Counted from the first letter of the stretch, positions 4,575-44,325 are shown. The stretch is 64,000 nucleotides of DNA from Akkermansiaceae bacterium (GCA_039768565.1 JBDNAG010000065.1:1977-65976), one strand, 5' to 3'. Made by a program: numbers and translations. The notes: generated by a model not told the origin, from the sequence alone.

Positions 4575-4637
4575 CTTTCTTAAGCTCAACAATAAAAATC
4601 ATTGCCCTTCCCGCGGCTCTCCCTTACCTCTCCCCCC

Positions 4638-4727
4638 GTCAGGAGTCACGGAGTGTGGGCTTGTGGACCCGGTCAGGACGGAAACGTAGCAGCCGCAGCT
4701 TGTCCCTCATTGCCGTGGCTTCCTGGC
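4638..4727 (+). ncRNA. ffs: Signal recognition particle RNA (small 4.5S type)
   Basis: The helix-8 core GGUCAGG-ACG-GAAA-CGU-AGCAGCC matches the E. coli 4.5S core GGUCAGG..GGAA..AGCAGCC, with a GNRA tetraloop. The 5' arm GUCAGGAGUCACGG (4638-4651) pairs with the 3' arm CCGUGGCUUCCUGGC (4713-4727). It lies in a 240-nt non-coding gap and is followed by a terminator. The exact ends are approximate. Confidence 0.8.
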
Positions 4728-4740
4728 ACTTCTTATTTTC

Positions 4741-24766: not shown

Positions 24767-25588
24767 ATGAAACTTGGAATTATCAACAGCGCCTTCAGTC
24801 AAGCTGGAGTCGACACCATCACCGGACTTGAGCACATCGCACGAATCGGCTTCGACTCGGTCGATATCTTCACCGAGCCAACTAGGATTTCGGCTGATGA
24901 AGTCTCGGCAATTACGAAAACCTGCGAAGTCAGGAATCTTCCAATCCTTTCTCTTCCCGTCGTTGCAATCGGACTGATCGATTTTAACGATCCCGTCCGT
25001 GAATATCACATTTCCCGTTGTAAGGAGTTCATCGACCTCGCCGCCCATTGGGGTGCCAGCAACATCCTCCTCGTGCTTGGCGAATACCTATGGCAACGGG
25101 AAGTGATTCCTCCGGAGGAACAGTGGCGCTGGGGCCTGGAGTCCTGTCGAGTTCTGGGTGATTATGCCGATAGCAAAGGAGTTGATATTGCTCTCGAACT
25201 CGAACCTTTTCGTCTCAGCCTTCTGAGCAGTATCGATGAAATGTCACGCTTTGTTCGCGAATGTGACCACCAGCGTGTCAGAGCCAATATTGACATTTCC
25301 CACCTCGTCCTCGCCGATAACGGTCCCGAAGAAGTTTGCAAACTCAAAGATCAGGCCATACACGTACACATCAGTGACTGTGATGGAAAAGTCCACGGTG
25401 ACCTTCCCCCAGGCCGGGGGATTGTTAAATTCGCACCTTACTTGCAGGCGATCAAAGAACTAAGCATCGATGGAGCCATCTCCATCGAACTGGAATATTC
25501 TCCCGATCCAAACCGTATCGTCGAATGGGTTGAGGAAGCTTACACGCAAACAGCCCGCCTCATGGATCAAGTTGGTCTTAGAGAATAG
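24767..25588 (+). CDS. Xylose-isomerase-like TIM-barrel protein (sugar phosphate isomerase/epimerase family)
   Basis: Length and pattern (IALELEP, HVHISDCDG, ISIELEY metal-ligand Glu/His/Asp positions) typical of the AP_endonuc_2 TIM-barrel family. Confidence 0.7.
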   Translation: MKLGIINSAFSQAGVDTITGLEHIARIGFDSVDIFTEPTRISADEVSAITKTCEVRNLPILSLPVVAIGLIDFNDPVREYHISRCKEFIDLAAHWGASNILLVLGEYLWQREVIPPEEQWRWGLESCRVLGDYADSKGVDIALELEPFRLSLLSSIDEMSRFVRECDHQRVRANIDISHLVLADNGPEEVCKLKDQAIHVHISDCDGKVHGDLPPGRGIVKFAPYLQAIKELSIDGAISIELEYSPDPNRIVEWVEEAYTQTARLMDQVGLRE

Positions 25589-25601
25589 TCACACAGAAAT
25601 C

Positions 25602-27026
25602 ATGTCCACCACCACCAAACCAACGGATCAGGTCGCCTTTCCCGACCCGTCGGTTTACTTGTTGAACCACAAAAATTCTCAAATAGCGATAAAGGCCGGA
25701 CTGGCTGAGGCCGAGTGGTATCAAAGCCCGGTTCCCCGTGCGAAGATGCGCAAATTACTCGTTCGCCGCGATGGCCTCGCACTGCGTGACACATTAATAT
25801 GGTTTAGCCTGATCTTCTCACTTGCCGCAGCAACCATTAGTCTTTGGGGGACATGGTGGATCATCGCGCCTTACCTGATTTATGCCGCTCTCTTTGCTGG
25901 AAGTGCCGACGCCCGCTGGCACGAAAGTCTGCATGGCACTGCCTTCAAAACCGATTGGATGAACAGCGCTCTTTACGAGATCGCCTCTTTCATGGTGCTT
26001 CGCGAATCAACAGTTTGGCGATGGTCCCACACTCGGCATCACAGCGACACCATTATCGTGGGCCGCGATCCCGAGATTGCAGCACCTCGGCCTCCTGACA
26101 TCACAGGTATGCTCCTCGGCTGCTTCGCCATCAAACGCTACCCCAAATACTTTGGTAATCTTCTCCACCATGCCCGTGGTCAACTTGGTGAGCGAGAGCG
26201 TGAGTTTATTCCAGACGATGAACATCCAAAAGTCTTTCGGACCGCCCGCATTCATCTTGCACTTTACCTTCTTGTAATTGTCATCGCTCTCGCTTCCCGA
26301 AGTATCCTCCCCCTCCTCCTCGTCGGGCTCCCAAACCTCTTCGGCACATGGTTGATGTCGCTTTACGGGCTCACCCAACACACCGGCCTTGCCGAAAATG
26401 TTCTCGATCACCGGCTCAACTCACGAACCTTCCTCACCAACATCGTAAACCGGTTCCTTTATCTCAATATGAACTACCATGTTGAGCACCATATGTTCCC
26501 CCTCGTTCCCTATTACAATCTCCCCAGCCTTCATGAAATTATAAAAGAGGATTGCCCCGCTCCTTACCCGAGCCTGTGGGCCTGCTGGAAAGAAATCATT
26601 CCAACAGTCGCCCGACAAACCGAACAACCAGGACACCATGTCAGAAGGGCTCTGCCTACCAACGCCGGCCGCGAACAGAAGCACGCCATCAGACCACCAT
26701 CTCCTGCAAACGCCGAGGGTTGGTTCGAAATCTGCGCCTCATCAGCCTTGGAAAGCTCCGAGGTCATCCGCGTCGATTGCAACAACCAAACCTACGCGAT
26801 CTATCGAGACAGTGAAGGAGAACTCTTTGCAACCGATGGCATTTGCACTCATGGAAAAACCCATCTCGCCGACGGATTCGTCATCGAAAAAATGATTGAG
26901 TGCCCGAAACACAACGGGCGCTTTAACCTCCAGGACGGAAGTCCGGCACGCCGCCCCGCTTGCAAAGCACTACATACCCATGAAGTGAACGAAGCCAACG
27001 GTCGAATCAAATTCCGCCCTTCATGA
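25602..27026 (+). CDS. Membrane fatty-acid-desaturase-family di-iron oxygenase fused to a C-terminal Rieske [2Fe-2S] domain
   Basis: His boxes HESLH, HTRHH and HVEHH with TM helices. The C-terminal 100 aa carry CTHGKTHL...CPKHNGRF (CxH...CxxH). The ATG at 25602 follows the previous stop by 13 nt. Confidence 0.8.
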   Translation: MSTTTKPTDQVAFPDPSVYLLNHKNSQIAIKAGLAEAEWYQSPVPRAKMRKLLVRRDGLALRDTLIWFSLIFSLAAATISLWGTWWIIAPYLIYAALFAGSADARWHESLHGTAFKTDWMNSALYEIASFMVLRESTVWRWSHTRHHSDTIIVGRDPEIAAPRPPDITGMLLGCFAIKRYPKYFGNLLHHARGQLGEREREFIPDDEHPKVFRTARIHLALYLLVIVIALASRSILPLLLVGLPNLFGTWLMSLYGLTQHTGLAENVLDHRLNSRTFLTNIVNRFLYLNMNYHVEHHMFPLVPYYNLPSLHEIIKEDCPAPYPSLWACWKEIIPTVARQTEQPGHHVRRALPTNAGREQKHAIRPPSPANAEGWFEICASSALESSEVIRVDCNNQTYAIYRDSEGELFATDGICTHGKTHLADGFVIEKMIECPKHNGRFNLQDGSPARRPACKALHTHEVNEANGRIKFRPS

Positions 27027-28288: not shown

Positions 28289-28365
<77 letters not shown>

Positions 28366-28452: not shown

Positions 28453-29451
28453 TCAGCAACAGCACCAAAAGTCCCTTCCTTCCTCAAATCCGGCCTCCTC
28501 AGCCAGCTCTCTCACTTTGAATCGTCCTCCACTCACTCCCACCGCGGAAAGCAAAATCGCATCCGGCCAGCGCCGTCCAAATTCCTCCGGGCCGGCAATC
28601 GGAGCCCCCTGACACGTACTCCCAATCCGCTTCGGACTAACCTCAAAATAGCCATGGACTTCAATTCCTCGAGAGATCAATTCCCGCCCAAGCACCTTTC
28701 CAATTGGCCCGGCACCCGAAATCACGACTCCTTTCTCTTTAATCTCCGGCAAGCGAGTTAAAGCGTCCGCTTTCAGGGCGAGCATCATTTTGTGCTCAAA
28801 ACGCGGGTCACTTCGAGTCAGCCGATCCGGCCGATCATTCCAATGATAGAGTAGGTCCGAAACCTTCCCGAATCGCGCTCCATATTCCAGCAAGCGCAGC
28901 CAAAGGTCATAGTCCTCCGCAAAACCGTTCCGCAGATAACCACCAACCTCTTCAAACAAAGACTTCGCCATCACAACTGTGGGCTGCACCACTGGGCTTT
29001 CCACAAATCGTTCCCGTGAAACTTTTTCGGGCGTATTCAAACCATTCACCCAATCCACATACCTCTGCATTCCTTCACCCAAGGCTCCTTCGACTATGAT
29101 CCCACAACTCACTACCTCGCACTCGCCGCCTTCCAATAGAGCAACCTGCTTCGCAATTCTTGTCGGATCACATCGATCATCCGCATCCATTCTCGCCATC
29201 CATTTCCCACGGCTCCCTTGAGCCGCCAAATCAAGCGCATCGAGCAACCTTGGTTCACCCCCCAAATCAATCACCCTCAACCGTGGATCTGACCGATCCA
29301 AGAACTCCCGTCGCACTTTTTCAGGACAACCATTCAACACCGCCAGGATCTCAAGATCAGGATAGGTCTGCTCCAACAAGTCGCCAAGAGCAAGCCCTGC
29401 ATGAAAGACTGCCGGCCCCACCGGAAAAACCACTGATACCAAATTATTCAT
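28453..29451 (-). CDS. GT2-family glycosyltransferase with a C-terminal Rossmann-like domain
   Basis: MARMDADD (DxD) and AEDYDLWLRL motifs. The C-terminal GVVISGAGPIGKVLG region looks nucleotide-binding. Confidence 0.65.
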   Translation of the reverse strand: MNNLVSVVFPVGPAVFHAGLALGDLLEQTYPDLEILAVLNGCPEKVRREFLDRSDPRLRVIDLGGEPRLLDALDLAAQGSRGKWMARMDADDRCDPTRIAKQVALLEGGECEVVSCGIIVEGALGEGMQRYVDWVNGLNTPEKVSRERFVESPVVQPTVVMAKSLFEEVGGYLRNGFAEDYDLWLRLLEYGARFGKVSDLLYHWNDRPDRLTRSDPRFEHKMMLALKADALTRLPEIKEKGVVISGAGPIGKVLGRELISRGIEVHGYFEVSPKRIGSTCQGAPIAGPEEFGRRWPDAILLSAVGVSGGRFKVRELAEEAGFEEGRDFWCCC

Positions 29452-29622
29452 CTAGTAACCTCCGGCCGCGCTTACCCCGCCCTGCTCATCGACCATGAGC
29501 GTCAACGGCCGTCAACACACCTCACAATCGTAATCCATCTGGCTCCCATAATCCTCGGGCGCAACTGCTGCGATAGCAAACCACTCGCCGCAGGAAGGGC
29601 ATTGGACTTCATCGTCGTTCAT
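29452..29622 (-). CDS. CPXCG-motif cysteine-rich zinc-ribbon mini-protein with an in-frame TGA (codon 37, 29512-29514): candidate selenoprotein, or truncated at 36 aa
   Basis: Not in the ORF track (under 60 aa). Translation: MNDDEVQCPSCGEWFAIAAVAPEDYGSQMDYDCEVC-TGA-RPLTLMVDEQGGVSAAGGY-TAG. The family hallmark, as I recall it, is CPxCG...DCxVCCRP, so the TGA sits on the second Cys of VCC and RP follows in frame. The final TAG abuts the ATG of the next gene. Confidence 0.6.
29484..29500 (-). promoter_or_regulatory. SECIS-like hairpin 11 nt downstream of the in-frame UGA
   Basis: RNA GCUCAU-GGUCG-AUGAGC: a perfect 6-bp stem with the apical loop GGUCG at nt 21-25 counted from the U of UGA. In the E. 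coli fdhF SECIS, as I recall it, the GGUC loop lies at nt 22-25. Confidence 0.45.
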
Positions 29623-29670
29623 GATTGAAAGCGTCGCCTCCAAGTCAAGAATCAGCAACCGTTACTTTTT

Positions 29671-30336
29671 TTAACCTCGAAACCGATATCCAACCCCACG
29701 AACAGTTTCAATCAACTCACCTCCGCTTTCGATCTTCTTCCGCAACATGTGTATGTGCTGATCTAGCGTCCTAGAATCCGGAAAATAATCCATTCCCCAG
29801 CAACGGTCCAAAAACTCGTTTCGCGACACCGGCAAACTTCGTCTCTCCTCAAGTAGTAAAAGCATCTTCACCTCGCGCAAGGTCAATTCGATTCCCCTCC
29901 CTCCCTGCTCGGCCCGCAATTCATCAGGCCAAATCACAACATCGGACATTTGAATCTTCCGACTTCCCTTTTCCGGATAGGCACGGCGTAAAGCCGATCT
30001 AATTCGAGCCATCACCTCTCCCGTCGTGAAGGGCTTCCGGATAAAGTCATCCGCCCCCAATTCAAGCCCGGCAACGATATCTTTCTCCTCGTTTTTAGCA
30101 GAAAGAAACAAAATTGGAGTTCGAGAATCCTTTTCACGCAACCTCCGACACACCTCGTATCCATCCATCCCCGGCATCATAATATCGAGACAAACCAAAT
30201 TAGGGTGCACCTCATCCCAAAGCTTCAATGCCATCTCACCGCCACTTGCTTCCACCACCTCGAACCCCTCCATTCGCAAAAGCTCCCCCAAGGCTTCAAG
30301 GGTCATCGGGTCATCTTCAGTCAGGAGAATTTTCAT
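29671..30336 (-). CDS. OmpR/PhoB-family response regulator
   Basis: Receiver domain (LVCLDIMMPGMDG, SAKNEE) plus winged-helix output (LTLREVKMLLLL..., RGVGYRF). Confidence 0.9.
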   Translation of the reverse strand: MKILLTEDDPMTLEALGELLRMEGFEVVEASGGEMALKLWDEVHPNLVCLDIMMPGMDGYEVCRRLREKDSRTPILFLSAKNEEKDIVAGLELGADDFIRKPFTTGEVMARIRSALRRAYPEKGSRKIQMSDVVIWPDELRAEQGGRGIELTLREVKMLLLLEERRSLPVSRNEFLDRCWGMDYFPDSRTLDQHIHMLRKKIESGGELIETVRGVGYRFRG

Positions 30337-31862: not shown

Positions 31863-32630
31863 TTACTTCTTCACTTCTACGACAGATGCCGTGACGAAAG
31901 CGAACCAAACCCGAGCCTCTTTATTTGTCTTTCGGGTAGCCGGGCTCGGCGAAATCGTTCCGATCATGCTAGGCTCTCCCCCTTTCAAACTGAAACTGGA
32001 TTGTAATTTCTGTTCCTCAAATCGAGGCATATTCGCCTCAGACAACCCCTGACCCCATAAATCAGGGGCCTTCAAAGCGAGATGAGTCGCCGCAAACCTT
32101 AACAAAACCAATCCGACTTCAGCACCTAAAGTCGCCTCGACTTCGAGGGAATCTCCCAGTTTCAAGGTTACAAAGGCTGAAGGAGTGGCCGGAGTTACCG
32201 GGAAGTTCCCTTCATGCCAGCCTGCTCCCTTTTTGGCCTTAGCCACAGACTCTGCCAGACTGGCATTTTCCACATCCGGAGACTGTTCCAGATATCCACC
32301 AAGTTGATTAGGAAGCTTGGGCGGCTCAAACTGAGTGGGGAACATAAATTCACTCGCATGATCTACCGTGGCTTTTTGCCCGGTGAGCGACCTAATTGCC
32401 AATAGCTTCTCTTGCCTAACTTCTCCCTTTTCCAAACCGGTCACCATTCGAGAATACAATTCACGGTCGGTGAGCGAGTCACGTTGACTCTGCGCCCCTT
32501 CCCCTTCTGGAAGCGAGAACACCTCGTAAACTACTTGAATCAACTTTGGCGGCTCTTCTCCCTGGGCTGCCAGAGGCATCGCTCCAGAAATTAAAATCCC
32601 GCCAATCACTGCTACTATTTTCACTTTCAT
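31863..32630 (-). CDS. Secreted protein of unknown function, paralog B of a tandem family
   Basis: Signal peptide. Shares VVYEVFSLP, FMFPTQFEPPKLPNQ, FPVTPATP, GDSLEVEA, GQGLSEANMPRF, IGTIS and VWFAFVT blocks with the adjacent gene. Confidence 0.7.
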   Translation of the reverse strand: MKVKIVAVIGGILISGAMPLAAQGEEPPKLIQVVYEVFSLPEGEGAQSQRDSLTDRELYSRMVTGLEKGEVRQEKLLAIRSLTGQKATVDHASEFMFPTQFEPPKLPNQLGGYLEQSPDVENASLAESVAKAKKGAGWHEGNFPVTPATPSAFVTLKLGDSLEVEATLGAEVGLVLLRFAATHLALKAPDLWGQGLSEANMPRFEEQKLQSSFSLKGGEPSMIGTISPSPATRKTNKEARVWFAFVTASVVEVKK

Positions 32631-32633
32631 CGC

Positions 32634-33404
32634 TTACTTAGTGATAGAGGGTTCGTTGCTCAAATCTGTCGTAGTAATAAAAGCGAAGCTTACCAACTCC
32701 GGTCCTTCTTCGGGCTGCAACTCTGCTGGTGCACTTACTGTTCCCAGATAAAATGCCTGTCCTGATTGGGTCTCAACTGCAGTGCGAATTTCGGGAACCG
32801 AAAACCGAGGCATTTCCACTTTGGATAGCCCTTGTCCGTAGCTGTCTTTCTGAATGAGCACAGTGCGAACCGGAGCCACTCGCAGATCAACTTGGCCACT
32901 TTCCTTCACCACAGCCTCAACTTCGAGAGATTCTCCAAGAATCCTCTTTTTGTAAGCAGCCGGCGTCGCAGGAGTCGCTGGGAAAATTGTGACCTCCTTA
33001 CCGTCCGCCCCTTTTCTTTTTGAAGCTCCGATCACTTGATTGGGCAGCTCGGGAGGCTCAAACTCCAGAGGATAGGTGTATTCCTCGGCCTGACTTGTCA
33101 CCATCGACTGCCCTGAAATCCCCCGCACGGTAAGAAAGCTCTCCAGCTTCACCTTCTCCTCCTTCAAGCCAGCGAGCAACCGGCCATAAAATTCCGTATC
33201 CGCCAGGCCAGCCCTTTGCAATGCTGCTGCCTCGCTCAAAGGCAAAGTAAAAACCTCATAGACTACTTTCACCGGCAATGGCTTCACCGGCATTGGCACC
33301 GCTGGCTCGGGTGTTTTTGGTTTGCTCTCCTGGGCGAACATTGTCGTGGGCATCCCGAGCAATACCACCCCGAGTGTCAGCCCACAAAATCCTTGCTTAT
33401 TCAT
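32634..33404 (-). CDS. Secreted protein of unknown function, paralog A of a tandem family
   Basis: Signal peptide. Blocks VVYEVFTLP, YTYPLEFEPPELPNQ, FPATPATP, GESLEVEA, GQGLSKVEMPRF, LGTVS and VSFAFIT are collinear with paralog B. Only 3 nt separate the two genes. Confidence 0.7.
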   Translation of the reverse strand: MNKQGFCGLTLGVVLLGMPTTMFAQESKPKTPEPAVPMPVKPLPVKVVYEVFTLPLSEAAALQRAGLADTEFYGRLLAGLKEEKVKLESFLTVRGISGQSMVTSQAEEYTYPLEFEPPELPNQVIGASKRKGADGKEVTIFPATPATPAAYKKRILGESLEVEAVVKESGQVDLRVAPVRTVLIQKDSYGQGLSKVEMPRFSVPEIRTAVETQSGQAFYLGTVSAPAELQPEEGPELVSFAFITTTDLSNEPSITK

Positions 33405-43650: not shown

Positions 43651-44325
43651 ATGAAACTTCTTCTCACTCTATCTCTCGGCCTAGCCTCCTTCGCCGGGGC
43701 ATTCACGATTCCAAAAGGAACGCACAATCTCGCTCAACTCGATGAAGTGCAAAAAAAAGCAACCAAGGCAAAGCAGCCCATCGCCTTTGTGATCGCAGAG
43801 AAAAAAATGGCCGCAACATGAGTGGATTGCCCGGGAGCCGTCAGTGTGTCGGCCAGCAAAGCAGTGCTCGGATTTTCAAAAAGCATTATTGTCGATGTCT
43901 CTGAAACCGCAGGTCTTCCTGAACTGATAAAGAATGCCTACCGCACGGGAGGCGCCTCCATTCCCATCGTGATCTTCACAGATCCGGGAGTGACCAAAAT
44001 TTTCGGTAGATACGATCACCCCGCAATGAAGACCCAGAAATATGGAACAGTCTTCAAGCCTGCCCGCGATGGCGTGGCTAAAGCAAAAAAAGAAGGCACA
44101 TTTGCCGACGGCGGAAAACCCGCAGTTATCACCAAAGTCGAAGGCGGTAAATTGGAGAGCTGGAAGAGCTCTGCAGGAACTGAAATCAAAGCCAAACTGG
44201 TCGGCATTGAGGACGATAAGATCTATCTTTTCGTCACTGAAGCCGGAAAATCAATCCGCGCCACCGCTGCCCAGCTCGATAAAACCAGCGTCGCGCGAGC
44301 TCGCAAGCAGGCCGGCTTAAAGTAG
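43651..44325 (+). CDS. Secreted thioredoxin-fold protein with a C-terminal SHD1 domain and an in-frame TGA (codon 57, 43819-43821) at the first position of the CxxC motif: candidate selenoprotein
   Basis: The ATG at 43651 opens 56 sense codons: MKLLLTLSLGLASFAGA (signal peptide) ...KQPIAFVIAEKKMAAT. TGA follows, then VDCPGAVS... in the same frame (the listed ORF 43822-44325). This gives T-U-V-D-C where Trx-fold homologs carry W-C-x-x-C after the beta1 strand. The C-terminus WKSSAGTEIKAKLVGIEDDKIYLF...LDKTSV is SHD1-like. Confidence 0.65.

Follow-up and report, generated by a model that had tools for sequence, protein, structure and literature searches.

A conserved in-frame TGA as probable selenocysteine codon in a CPXCG (PF14255) zinc-ribbon gene of Akkermansiaceae

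Is the TGA that interrupts a small zinc-ribbon gene of an Akkermansiaceae bacterium the end of the protein, or is it read as selenocysteine (Sec)? The question is raised by a stretch of 64,000 nucleotides (GCA_039768565.1, JBDNAG010000065.1:1977-65976), referred to as the window in the following, which carries on its minus strand an open reading frame (ORF) of the CPXCG family (Pfam PF14255) with a TGA at codon 37. An earlier interpretation, made from the DNA alone and called here the sequence-only reading, took this TGA for a Sec codon which replaces the second Cys of the conserved VCC-RP motif and is followed by a selenocysteine insertion sequence (SECIS) resembling the one of Escherichia coli fdhF. 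This proposal is supported by the comparative evidence presented here. With a probability of roughly 0.87, as judged from the sequences compared, the ORF encodes a 56-residue CPXCG selenoprotein into which Sec would be inserted at codon 37 with the help of SelB and the hairpin.

The minus strand from 29622 to 29452 reads MNDDEVQCPSCGEW...DYDCEVC-TGA-RPLTLMVDEQGGVSAAGGY-TAG. An ATG at 29622 starts the frame, which runs as MNDDEVQCPSCGEWFAIAAVAPEDYGSQMDYDCEVC up to the TGA at 29514-29512 (codon 37), continues directly behind it with Arg-Pro in frame and is closed by a TAG at 29454-29452. This TAG adjoins the ATG (29451) of a gene for a family-2 glycosyltransferase (GT2) of 332 amino acids (aa). 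What the sequence-only reading had stated on the sequence, including the hairpin described below, holds throughout. The mechanical ORF list of the window contains only a 48-codon version of the CPXCG gene which ends at the TGA, and the public annotation in every assembly found shows a truncated 'hypothetical protein' of 35-85 residues. The coordinates are collected in Table 1.

The codon in question belongs to a motif that defines the family. If Cys is written for the TGA, the 56-residue product reaches 34.1 bits with the Pfam model PF14255 (Cys_rich_CPXG, 'CPXCG motif-containing cysteine-rich protein'), for which the gathering cut-off is 25.2 bits, and the alignment comprises residues 6-46 and spans the TGA. 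The 36-aa truncation scores 17.5 bits and thus stays below the cut-off. The N-terminal CPxCG motif is present as CPSCG (residues 8-12), and the second motif of the family, DCxxCC-R-P, is present as DCEVC-TGA-RP, the last Cys being the TGA codon. The motif CxVCCRP, which the sequence-only reading had named for this family, is real: 12 Cys-form relatives all show the block DYDCEVCCRPL unchanged, and when 1.84 billion representative proteins were searched with a profile, CxxCC was present in 147 of the 189 family proteins inspected. Another 30 of these stop exactly after CxxC, and the other 12 are off-target matches, fragments, damaged sequences or misparses of the regular expression. From the invariant block and these counts it follows that the TGA replaces a family-defining residue. 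In its length of 56 aa, its CPxCG and DCxxC[C/U]RP motifs and a score above the gathering cut-off across the TGA the protein resembles the other members of PF14255, a family without experimentally known function, and it differs from them in that the fifth Cys is encoded by TGA. In two distant members (P0173, P0201) a Cys-rich module (YHLxRGxCCxxxCxHCPY) precedes the CPXCG domain as an N-terminal fusion. In the literature the term 'CPXCG' mostly stands for haloarchaeal zinc-finger proteins and for a precursor motif, CPxCGxG, of ribosomally synthesised and post-translationally modified peptides; both are unrelated to PF14255 and were set aside.

A protein search for relatives yielded 44 clusters, all of them from marine Verrucomicrobia/Akkermansiaceae where a name is given. 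About 28 clusters terminate at ...DYDCEVC, with N-terminal extensions that vary in length by gene caller, and about 15 sister clusters read ...DYDCEVCCRPL.... The DNA of the relatives, of which genome and metagenome collections supplied 33 loci and exact-protein look-ups another 15, comprises 25 distinct interrupted genes; the TGA-form orthologues stem from seven species-level metagenome-assembled genomes as well as from metagenome contigs of many samples. Assemblies with the TGA form are JAKMGP01, CASIAV01, JAUIGV01, JAQWSX01, CBFHQJ01, DCQM01 and JALQTQ01, and those with the Cys form are JBPOGH01, JAAEZT01, JAKMEV01, JAQWZU01, NHEN01, JBMHCQ01 and CALGMJ01. Without exception the 25 genes have TGA as internal stop, followed by a tail of 18-20 codons, whereas the extended frame is closed by TAG in 15 of them, by TGA in nine and by TAA in one. 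In the sister clade, the codon of the TGA is TGC or TGT in 9/9 distinct sequences. The alternation of Cys and Sec at this column, which had been named as a check, is therefore present across the homologues, and the pair of a TGA form (25 genes) and a TGC/TGT form (nine sister-clade sequences) is the one by which selenoprotein genes are recognised.

How much time the TGA has had to change can be estimated from the head of the gene, the part upstream of it. Its synonymous divergence (pS) is 0.77 and thereby near saturation, so that a codon used only as a stop could have drifted to TAA or TAG. This value and all further results on pS, on the ratio of nonsynonymous to synonymous divergence (pN/pS) and on stops in the three frames refer to 22 distinct TGA-form sequences. 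The comparative evidence from the 25 independent genes lies far beyond chance. One Sec-clade copy (P0029) has a frameshift just before the TGA (…DYDCEGMLTPDDAVGR), which is either an assembly error or the mark of a decayed copy. In addition, the two clades end differently: the Cys-form relatives (P0001-P0044, P0128 onward) have a conserved C-terminus G-L-[G/D]-[E/D], whereas the Sec clade is without this acidic end and finishes with GGY or GGM.

Downstream of the TGA the DNA evolves as protein-coding sequence. In the frame continuous with the head, the tail has a pN/pS of 0.33 (0.16 in the head), compared with 1.55 and 1.39 in the two frames out of register. These two frames are closed by stops in 21 and 22 of the sequences, and the continuous frame is open in 21, the exception being a tail that is shorter by one codon. 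The tail sequence RPMxLxVDEQGGV corresponds by homology to RPLxLxVxEDGE (RPLxLxVxExG) of the Cys forms. Protein conservation in one and the same frame on either side of the TGA, a further hallmark of selenoprotein genes, is thus found here. The sequence-only reading had been prepared to give way if close relatives shared the truncated form without conserving the downstream frame; this is not the case, as 25/25 distinct relatives keep both the TGA and an open, protein-conserved tail. The most divergent members, L052 and L053, have no GT2 gene downstream and yet keep the TGA, RPMILMVDEEGRV and the hairpin. Therefore the TGA, the tail and the hairpin belong to the CPXCG gene and not to the leader of a neighbouring gene.

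Directly behind the TGA, the transcript can form the stem-loop listed in Table 1. Bacterial SECIS elements (bSECIS) have, according to a 2026 catalogue of prokaryotic selenoproteins (PMC13188914), an apical loop of 3-9 nucleotides (nt) whose first two positions are G, then G or U, an upper stem of 4-16 base pairs (bp), a distance of 16-37 nt between UGA and loop and a minimum free energy (MFE) of −7.5 kcal/mol or lower. The hairpin conforms to each of these rules, with a loop of 5 nt starting with GG, a stem of 6 bp, 17 nt between UGA and loop (nt 4-20) and an MFE of −14.7 kcal/mol. The latter value applies to the UGA plus 45 nt and is the upper end of a range from −14.7 to −18.4 kcal/mol; across the relatives the MFE lies between −9.9 and −19.4 kcal/mol. 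The isolated 17-mer has −6.9 kcal/mol and the hairpin-only structure in its context −8.4 kcal/mol. In the lower helix of the extended stem-loop 91% of the cells are paired, and no covariation is seen.

The hairpin appears to be under selection. Of the 25 distinct genes, 23 have the loop GGUCG; the loop is GGUC in the four L006-type rows, which share one hairpin variant and correspond to the other two genes. In 22 sequences codons 44-46 (GTC GAT GAG) do not vary at any of their three positions, compared with two to four synonymous codons used for equally conserved residues of the head, and pS over the hairpin codons is 0.24 compared with 0.77 in the head. In the alignment, 87% of the cells are paired, and only 31-49% when the partners are slid against each other. 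The hairpin is missing from all nine distinct Cys-clade sequences. The few variants preserve the pairing: in the L006 group the 5' arm differs at three positions (CAT to ATC) and pairs, one register over, with the unchanged 3' arm to a stem of 6 bp which has a single bulged G and the loop GGUC; in L005 and L033 the closing pair is G-U; and in L052 it is flipped from G-C to C-G, a compensatory change which costs a Gln-to-Glu replacement. The GTG and L052 variants have an upper stem of 7 bp. A long-range pair between the third position of Val35 and codon 51 (GC in six, CG in five and GU in three cases) may be due to shared ancestry and is not relied on. An Rfam scan of the window at gathering thresholds found only tRNA and signal recognition particle (SRP) RNA, and a permissive scan of 29380-29680 yielded nothing beyond matches to small nucleolar and long non-coding RNAs, which are below threshold and without meaning.

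For E. coli the minimal SECIS is reported to be a 17-nt apical hairpin which begins 11 nt after the UGA, and the same geometry is found here. The likeness to fdhF drawn in the sequence-only reading was checked on the DNA of E. coli K-12, in which the UGA is codon 140 and GGUC is located at nt 22-25; in the window GGUC is located at nt 21-24 of the loop GGUCG (nt 21-25). Both stem-loops lie within the coding region directly after the UGA, and their predicted overall shapes are similar, with lower pairs reaching the UGA in both. The differences concern the loop, which has 5 nt (GGUCG) here and 4 nt in fdhF, and a bulged U in the upper stem of fdhF, which is a contact of SelB. This bulged U has no counterpart, as the stem is perfect in the window and in most relatives and the bulge of L006 is a G; for this reason the hairpin is regarded as an element which would work in the manner of the fdhF SECIS but is kept apart from it. 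Outside the loop there is no sequence similarity, and binding of SelB is a prediction here.

In the proposed mechanism the UGA at codon 37 would be decoded as Sec by Sec-tRNA(Sec), delivered by SelB. SelB would be recruited by the 17-nt stem-loop which begins 11 nt downstream and carries the GGUC(G) loop, in an arrangement as in E. coli fdhF, and translation would proceed via the 19-codon tail to the TAG adjoining the GT2 start codon. It is a well-supported conclusion that the mechanism is ordinary bacterial Sec decoding and that the protein family is what is new. Within this reading, the insertion of Sec rather than another amino acid and the dependence on SelB are the steps that we infer.

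Several observations weigh against the assignment as a selenoprotein. Compared with shuffled sequences, the single-sequence fold is unexceptional (z = −0.64). As there is so little variation in the hairpin, formal covariation gives a weak signal; one pair is doubly changed, and values as high as the observed ones occur in 42-52 of 500 shuffles. The share of the tail conservation contributed by Gly54-Gly55 (GGAGG) could serve the ribosome-binding site of the next gene. Furthermore, the tRNA genes detected by ARAGORN in the window and in 45 related loci are all for tRNA-Pro, with no tRNA-Sec among them. A tblastn search with SelA, SelB and SelD of E. coli remained without match in the related DNA covered, which at 337 kb amounts to very little of any genome, and in a protein search with E. 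coli SelA the best 120 of 8000 matches were all from Enterobacterales. A Sec trait in Verrucomicrobia is not stated in the literature found; for some marine Planctomycetes, which belong to a related phylum, the full Sec machinery is documented (PMC4807772).

That the lineage decodes Sec is argued by a second gene with the same signature, unrelated to the first, in the same 64-kb window. The sequence-only reading had pointed to another TGA at a Cys position near 43651, and this cross-reference holds, as the TGA is conserved and followed by a hairpin of its own. The gene encodes a protein of about 224 aa with a signal peptide, a weak thioredoxin-like region and T-TGA-V-D-C-P-G (T-U-VDC-PG) at codon 57. 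The annotation of each of its 83 homologues in the databases covers no more than the part behind the TGA. Two relatives are available as DNA (L049, 9806-10480; L050, 356-1033), one from a cultured Verrucomicrobiaceae isolate with a complete genome (CP144259.1) and the other 49% identical; both keep the TGA, the 56 upstream codons and the invariant GGAGCCGTCAGTGTGTCGGC hairpin. Among the homologues no Cys form was seen, and the protein matched no NCBIfam selenoprotein model. The gene at 43651-44325 probably represents another uncatalogued selenoprotein family.

Of the explanations which dispense with Sec, the one that survives best takes the TGA for a true stop. The product would then be a 36-residue zinc ribbon with four Cys, and the conserved 60 nt behind it would be the leader of the GT2 gene, in which the hairpin has a regulatory or stabilising role beside a Shine-Dalgarno sequence. 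We consider this improbable. Although the four remaining Cys would suffice for a zinc ribbon, the truncated form is without the invariant fifth Cys and the Arg-Pro, and the tail, which doubles the Pfam score, has its homologue in the C-terminal end of the Cys forms. A GGAGG does lie within the tail, 7 nt before the ATG of the GT2 gene; however, a leader would not account for a pN/pS of 0.33 in the frame of the head against about 1.4-1.5 out of frame, nor for the lack of stops, and L052 and L053 retain the tail and the hairpin without a GT2 gene downstream. Gene callers annotate the short form everywhere, but the internal codon is TGA in 25/25 genes while the terminal stops vary.

Still less probable is a readthrough of the UGA by a near-cognate tRNA for Trp, Cys or Arg, in which an ordinary amino acid would be inserted and the hairpin would stimulate the leak. 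UGA is the leakiest stop codon, and the negative searches for the Sec machinery, in the 337 kb of related DNA and among the best 120 of 8000 SelA matches, would fit such a leak. However, the codon stands at a family-invariant Cys position, at which TGC or TGT would supply Cys far more efficiently, and the hairpin matches SECIS elements of the SelB type in loop sequence and spacing. In the second gene the TGA is located at the first position of UxxC in a thioredoxin-like fold, which is a classical Sec site. Finally, we know of no conserved hairpin-driven readthrough of this kind in bacteria. An artefact or a decayed gene has next to no probability and is rejected, for although TGA is one base away from TGC and TGT and UGA-to-Trp reassignment exists in Verrucomicrobiota, the sequencing error at 29512-29514 which had been considered is excluded by independent assemblies sharing the codon (25 distinct sequences at saturated synonymous divergence), a pseudogene disagrees with purifying selection on either side of it, and a reassignment of UGA to Trp or Gly disagrees with TGA as ordinary stop of 12/35 long ORFs in the window, the only reassigned Verrucomicrobiota being two tiny-genome endosymbionts of ciliates (PMC13462651).

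If the ORF encodes a selenoprotein, what kind of protein is it? The closest Cys form, P0001, is 78% identical, and its AlphaFold model, which is confident with a pLDDT of 90, consists of two knuckles and a three-stranded sheet; solved structures sought by sequence were not found. The best match of this model in the Protein Data Bank is the zinc-ribbon carrier protein LysW (5k2m_F, TM-score 0.68; 3wwn_B, TM-score 0.56). Since the Foldseek E-values of 0.15-0.9 are not significant, this resemblance says only 'zinc ribbon'. LysW, an amino-group carrier protein, is likewise small, with about 53 residues, and built on CPxCG...CxxC. LysW presumably has no fifth Cys and ends with an acidic tail of the EDWGE type, through the C-terminal Glu of which it is used. 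The protein of the window ends with ...AAGGY and is without an acidic tail, which places it outside the LysW type. CPSC (8-11) and CEVC (33-36) would form a ribbon of the Zn(Cys)4 type. Because Sec37 directly follows the fourth ligand and replaces the fifth, family-invariant Cys, residue 37 may be the reactive residue, either as part of a redox-active Cys-Sec pair or as ligand of a soft metal or metalloid. The redox role which the sequence-only reading had suggested, in place of zinc binding alone, would be one of these two.

A Sec directly after a Cys is known from other proteins. The catalogue mentioned above (PMC13188914, Table 1 there) names SaoC, the MerB-like SaoL, HgcA, MbdU, a 2Fe-2S protein of the Csac_0668 type and KCU-star as selenoproteins with a CU dyad, several of which are small and Cys-rich and are thought to bind metals or metalloids. 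These proteins have no sequence relationship to the protein of the window, in which the dyad ends a zinc-ribbon knuckle. The FmdB family (TIGR02605, UxxU) and the 'Dual CXXC motif small protein' (NF041197) are small listed selenoproteins, by prediction, of the zinc-ribbon type and rich in CxxC; there, in contrast, Sec replaces ribbon ligands (UxxU) or sits in an RxU/GxU motif. When the read-through protein was compared with the NCBIfam selenoprotein models at E-values up to 0.1, only a sub-threshold match to TIGR02605 appeared (13.8 bits, cut-off 31.3 bits), and NF041197 did not match. In the catalogue of 119 prokaryotic selenoprotein families and subfamilies (PMC13188914), no CPXCG, PF14255 or cysteine-rich entry was found in the searched text and the table parts covered, which agrees with the sequence-only reading that the family is not listed. 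PF14255/CPXCG is also absent from BSepDB and deep-Sep, and no member described as selenoprotein was found in the literature.

The function of the dyad and of the neighbouring gene can be connected only tentatively. In the Sec clade, most contigs for which genes have been called carry the GT2 gene behind the CPXCG gene, and in the Cys clade it is the start of a homologous ORF (..LVSVVFP..) that follows. The two genes are coupled by TAGATG in the window and by ATGTGATG or ATGAATGA overlaps in relatives, and the GGAGG at 29463-29459 is probably the Shine-Dalgarno sequence of the GT2 gene. In thioredoxin reductase a Cys-Sec pair forms a selenenylsulfide. A rather doubtful but conceivable reading is that the Cys36-Sec37 dyad acts as such a selenenylsulfide or as a metal-sensing switch, and that the protein is a redox- or selenium-responsive partner of the downstream GT2; as the GT2 gene starts at the stop codon of the Sec gene, the efficiency of Sec insertion could then tune GT2 translation. 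The CPXCG genes of L052 and L053 (3001-3165) are preceded by a gene for a major facilitator superfamily (MFS) transporter and followed, at a distance of 400 nt, by an Exo_endo_phos gene, without GT2, so that the partnership is not universal.

Further features of the window are given for orientation. The C-terminus of the GT2 (residues 238-322) has weak matches to Rossmann domains of the Rex/NeuD type. A tRNA-Pro(TGG) at 28289-28365 (minus strand) lies just downstream of the GT2 gene, a position which is conserved in nearly all Sec- and Cys-clade loci. A bacterial small SRP RNA (Rfam RF00169, 58.2 bits) is located at 4637-4731 on the plus strand. A 518-aa ORF at 25470-27026 (plus strand) combines a membrane domain resembling fatty-acid desaturases with a C-terminal Rieske 2Fe-2S ferredoxin domain of the MocE type, and at 31863-33404 (minus strand) two tandem ORFs of about 255 aa each match only a short stretch, positions of about 601-688, of the 805-position model of the type IV pilus secretin Amuc_1098, which fits an origin of the window from the Akkermansiaceae type.

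Table 1 Coordinates of the CPXCG locus, its neighbour and the second candidate gene (numbered from the first letter of the window)
Feature	Coordinates	Strand	Remarks
Complete candidate selenoprotein ORF, CPXCG (PF14255) zinc-ribbon protein	29452..29622	-	56 sense codons (predicted Sec at codon 37) plus TAG
In-frame TGA, predicted Sec codon	29512..29514	-	aligned with second Cys of CxxCC; orthologue alignment
C-terminal tail RPLTLMVDEQGGVSAAGGY	29455..29511	-	19 codons; translated only with UGA decoding
SECIS-like apical hairpin	29484..29500	-	17 nt, begins 11 nt after UGA; 6-bp stem GCUCAU/AUGAGC, loop GGUCG (29494-29490)
Extended SECIS-like stem-loop	29474..29512	-	RNAalifold consensus; lower pairs A3-U41, C4-G40, C7-G38, C8-G37 (counted from U of UGA)
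GGAGG in Gly54-Gly55 codons	29459..29463	-	7 nt upstream of GT2 ATG; read from sequence; recurs in many relatives
Family-2 glycosyltransferase (GT2)	28453..29451	-	332 aa; Pfam PF00535, 49.9 bits
Second candidate selenoprotein gene, secreted, thioredoxin-like	43651..44325	+	TGA 43819-43821; hairpin GCCGUCAGUGUGUCGGC 43837-43853

The assignment as a selenoprotein would add PF14255, a widespread family of unknown function, to the bacterial selenoprotein families, and the little-studied marine Akkermansiaceae/Verrucomicrobia to the apparent users of selenocysteine. The truncated 'hypothetical protein' records would represent a systematic annotation error which can be corrected. Since the SECIS is so close to that of fdhF, E. 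coli may offer a direct test of the prediction. Sec nearly always marks a catalytic or metal-binding residue, and by the Sec/Cys alternation the fifth Cys, directly after the zinc-ribbon ligands, is singled out as functional residue; this alternation would be the first concrete functional lead for PF14255. If the switch reading were true, the whole family would consist of reactive-thiol carriers or switches and not of structural zinc fingers.

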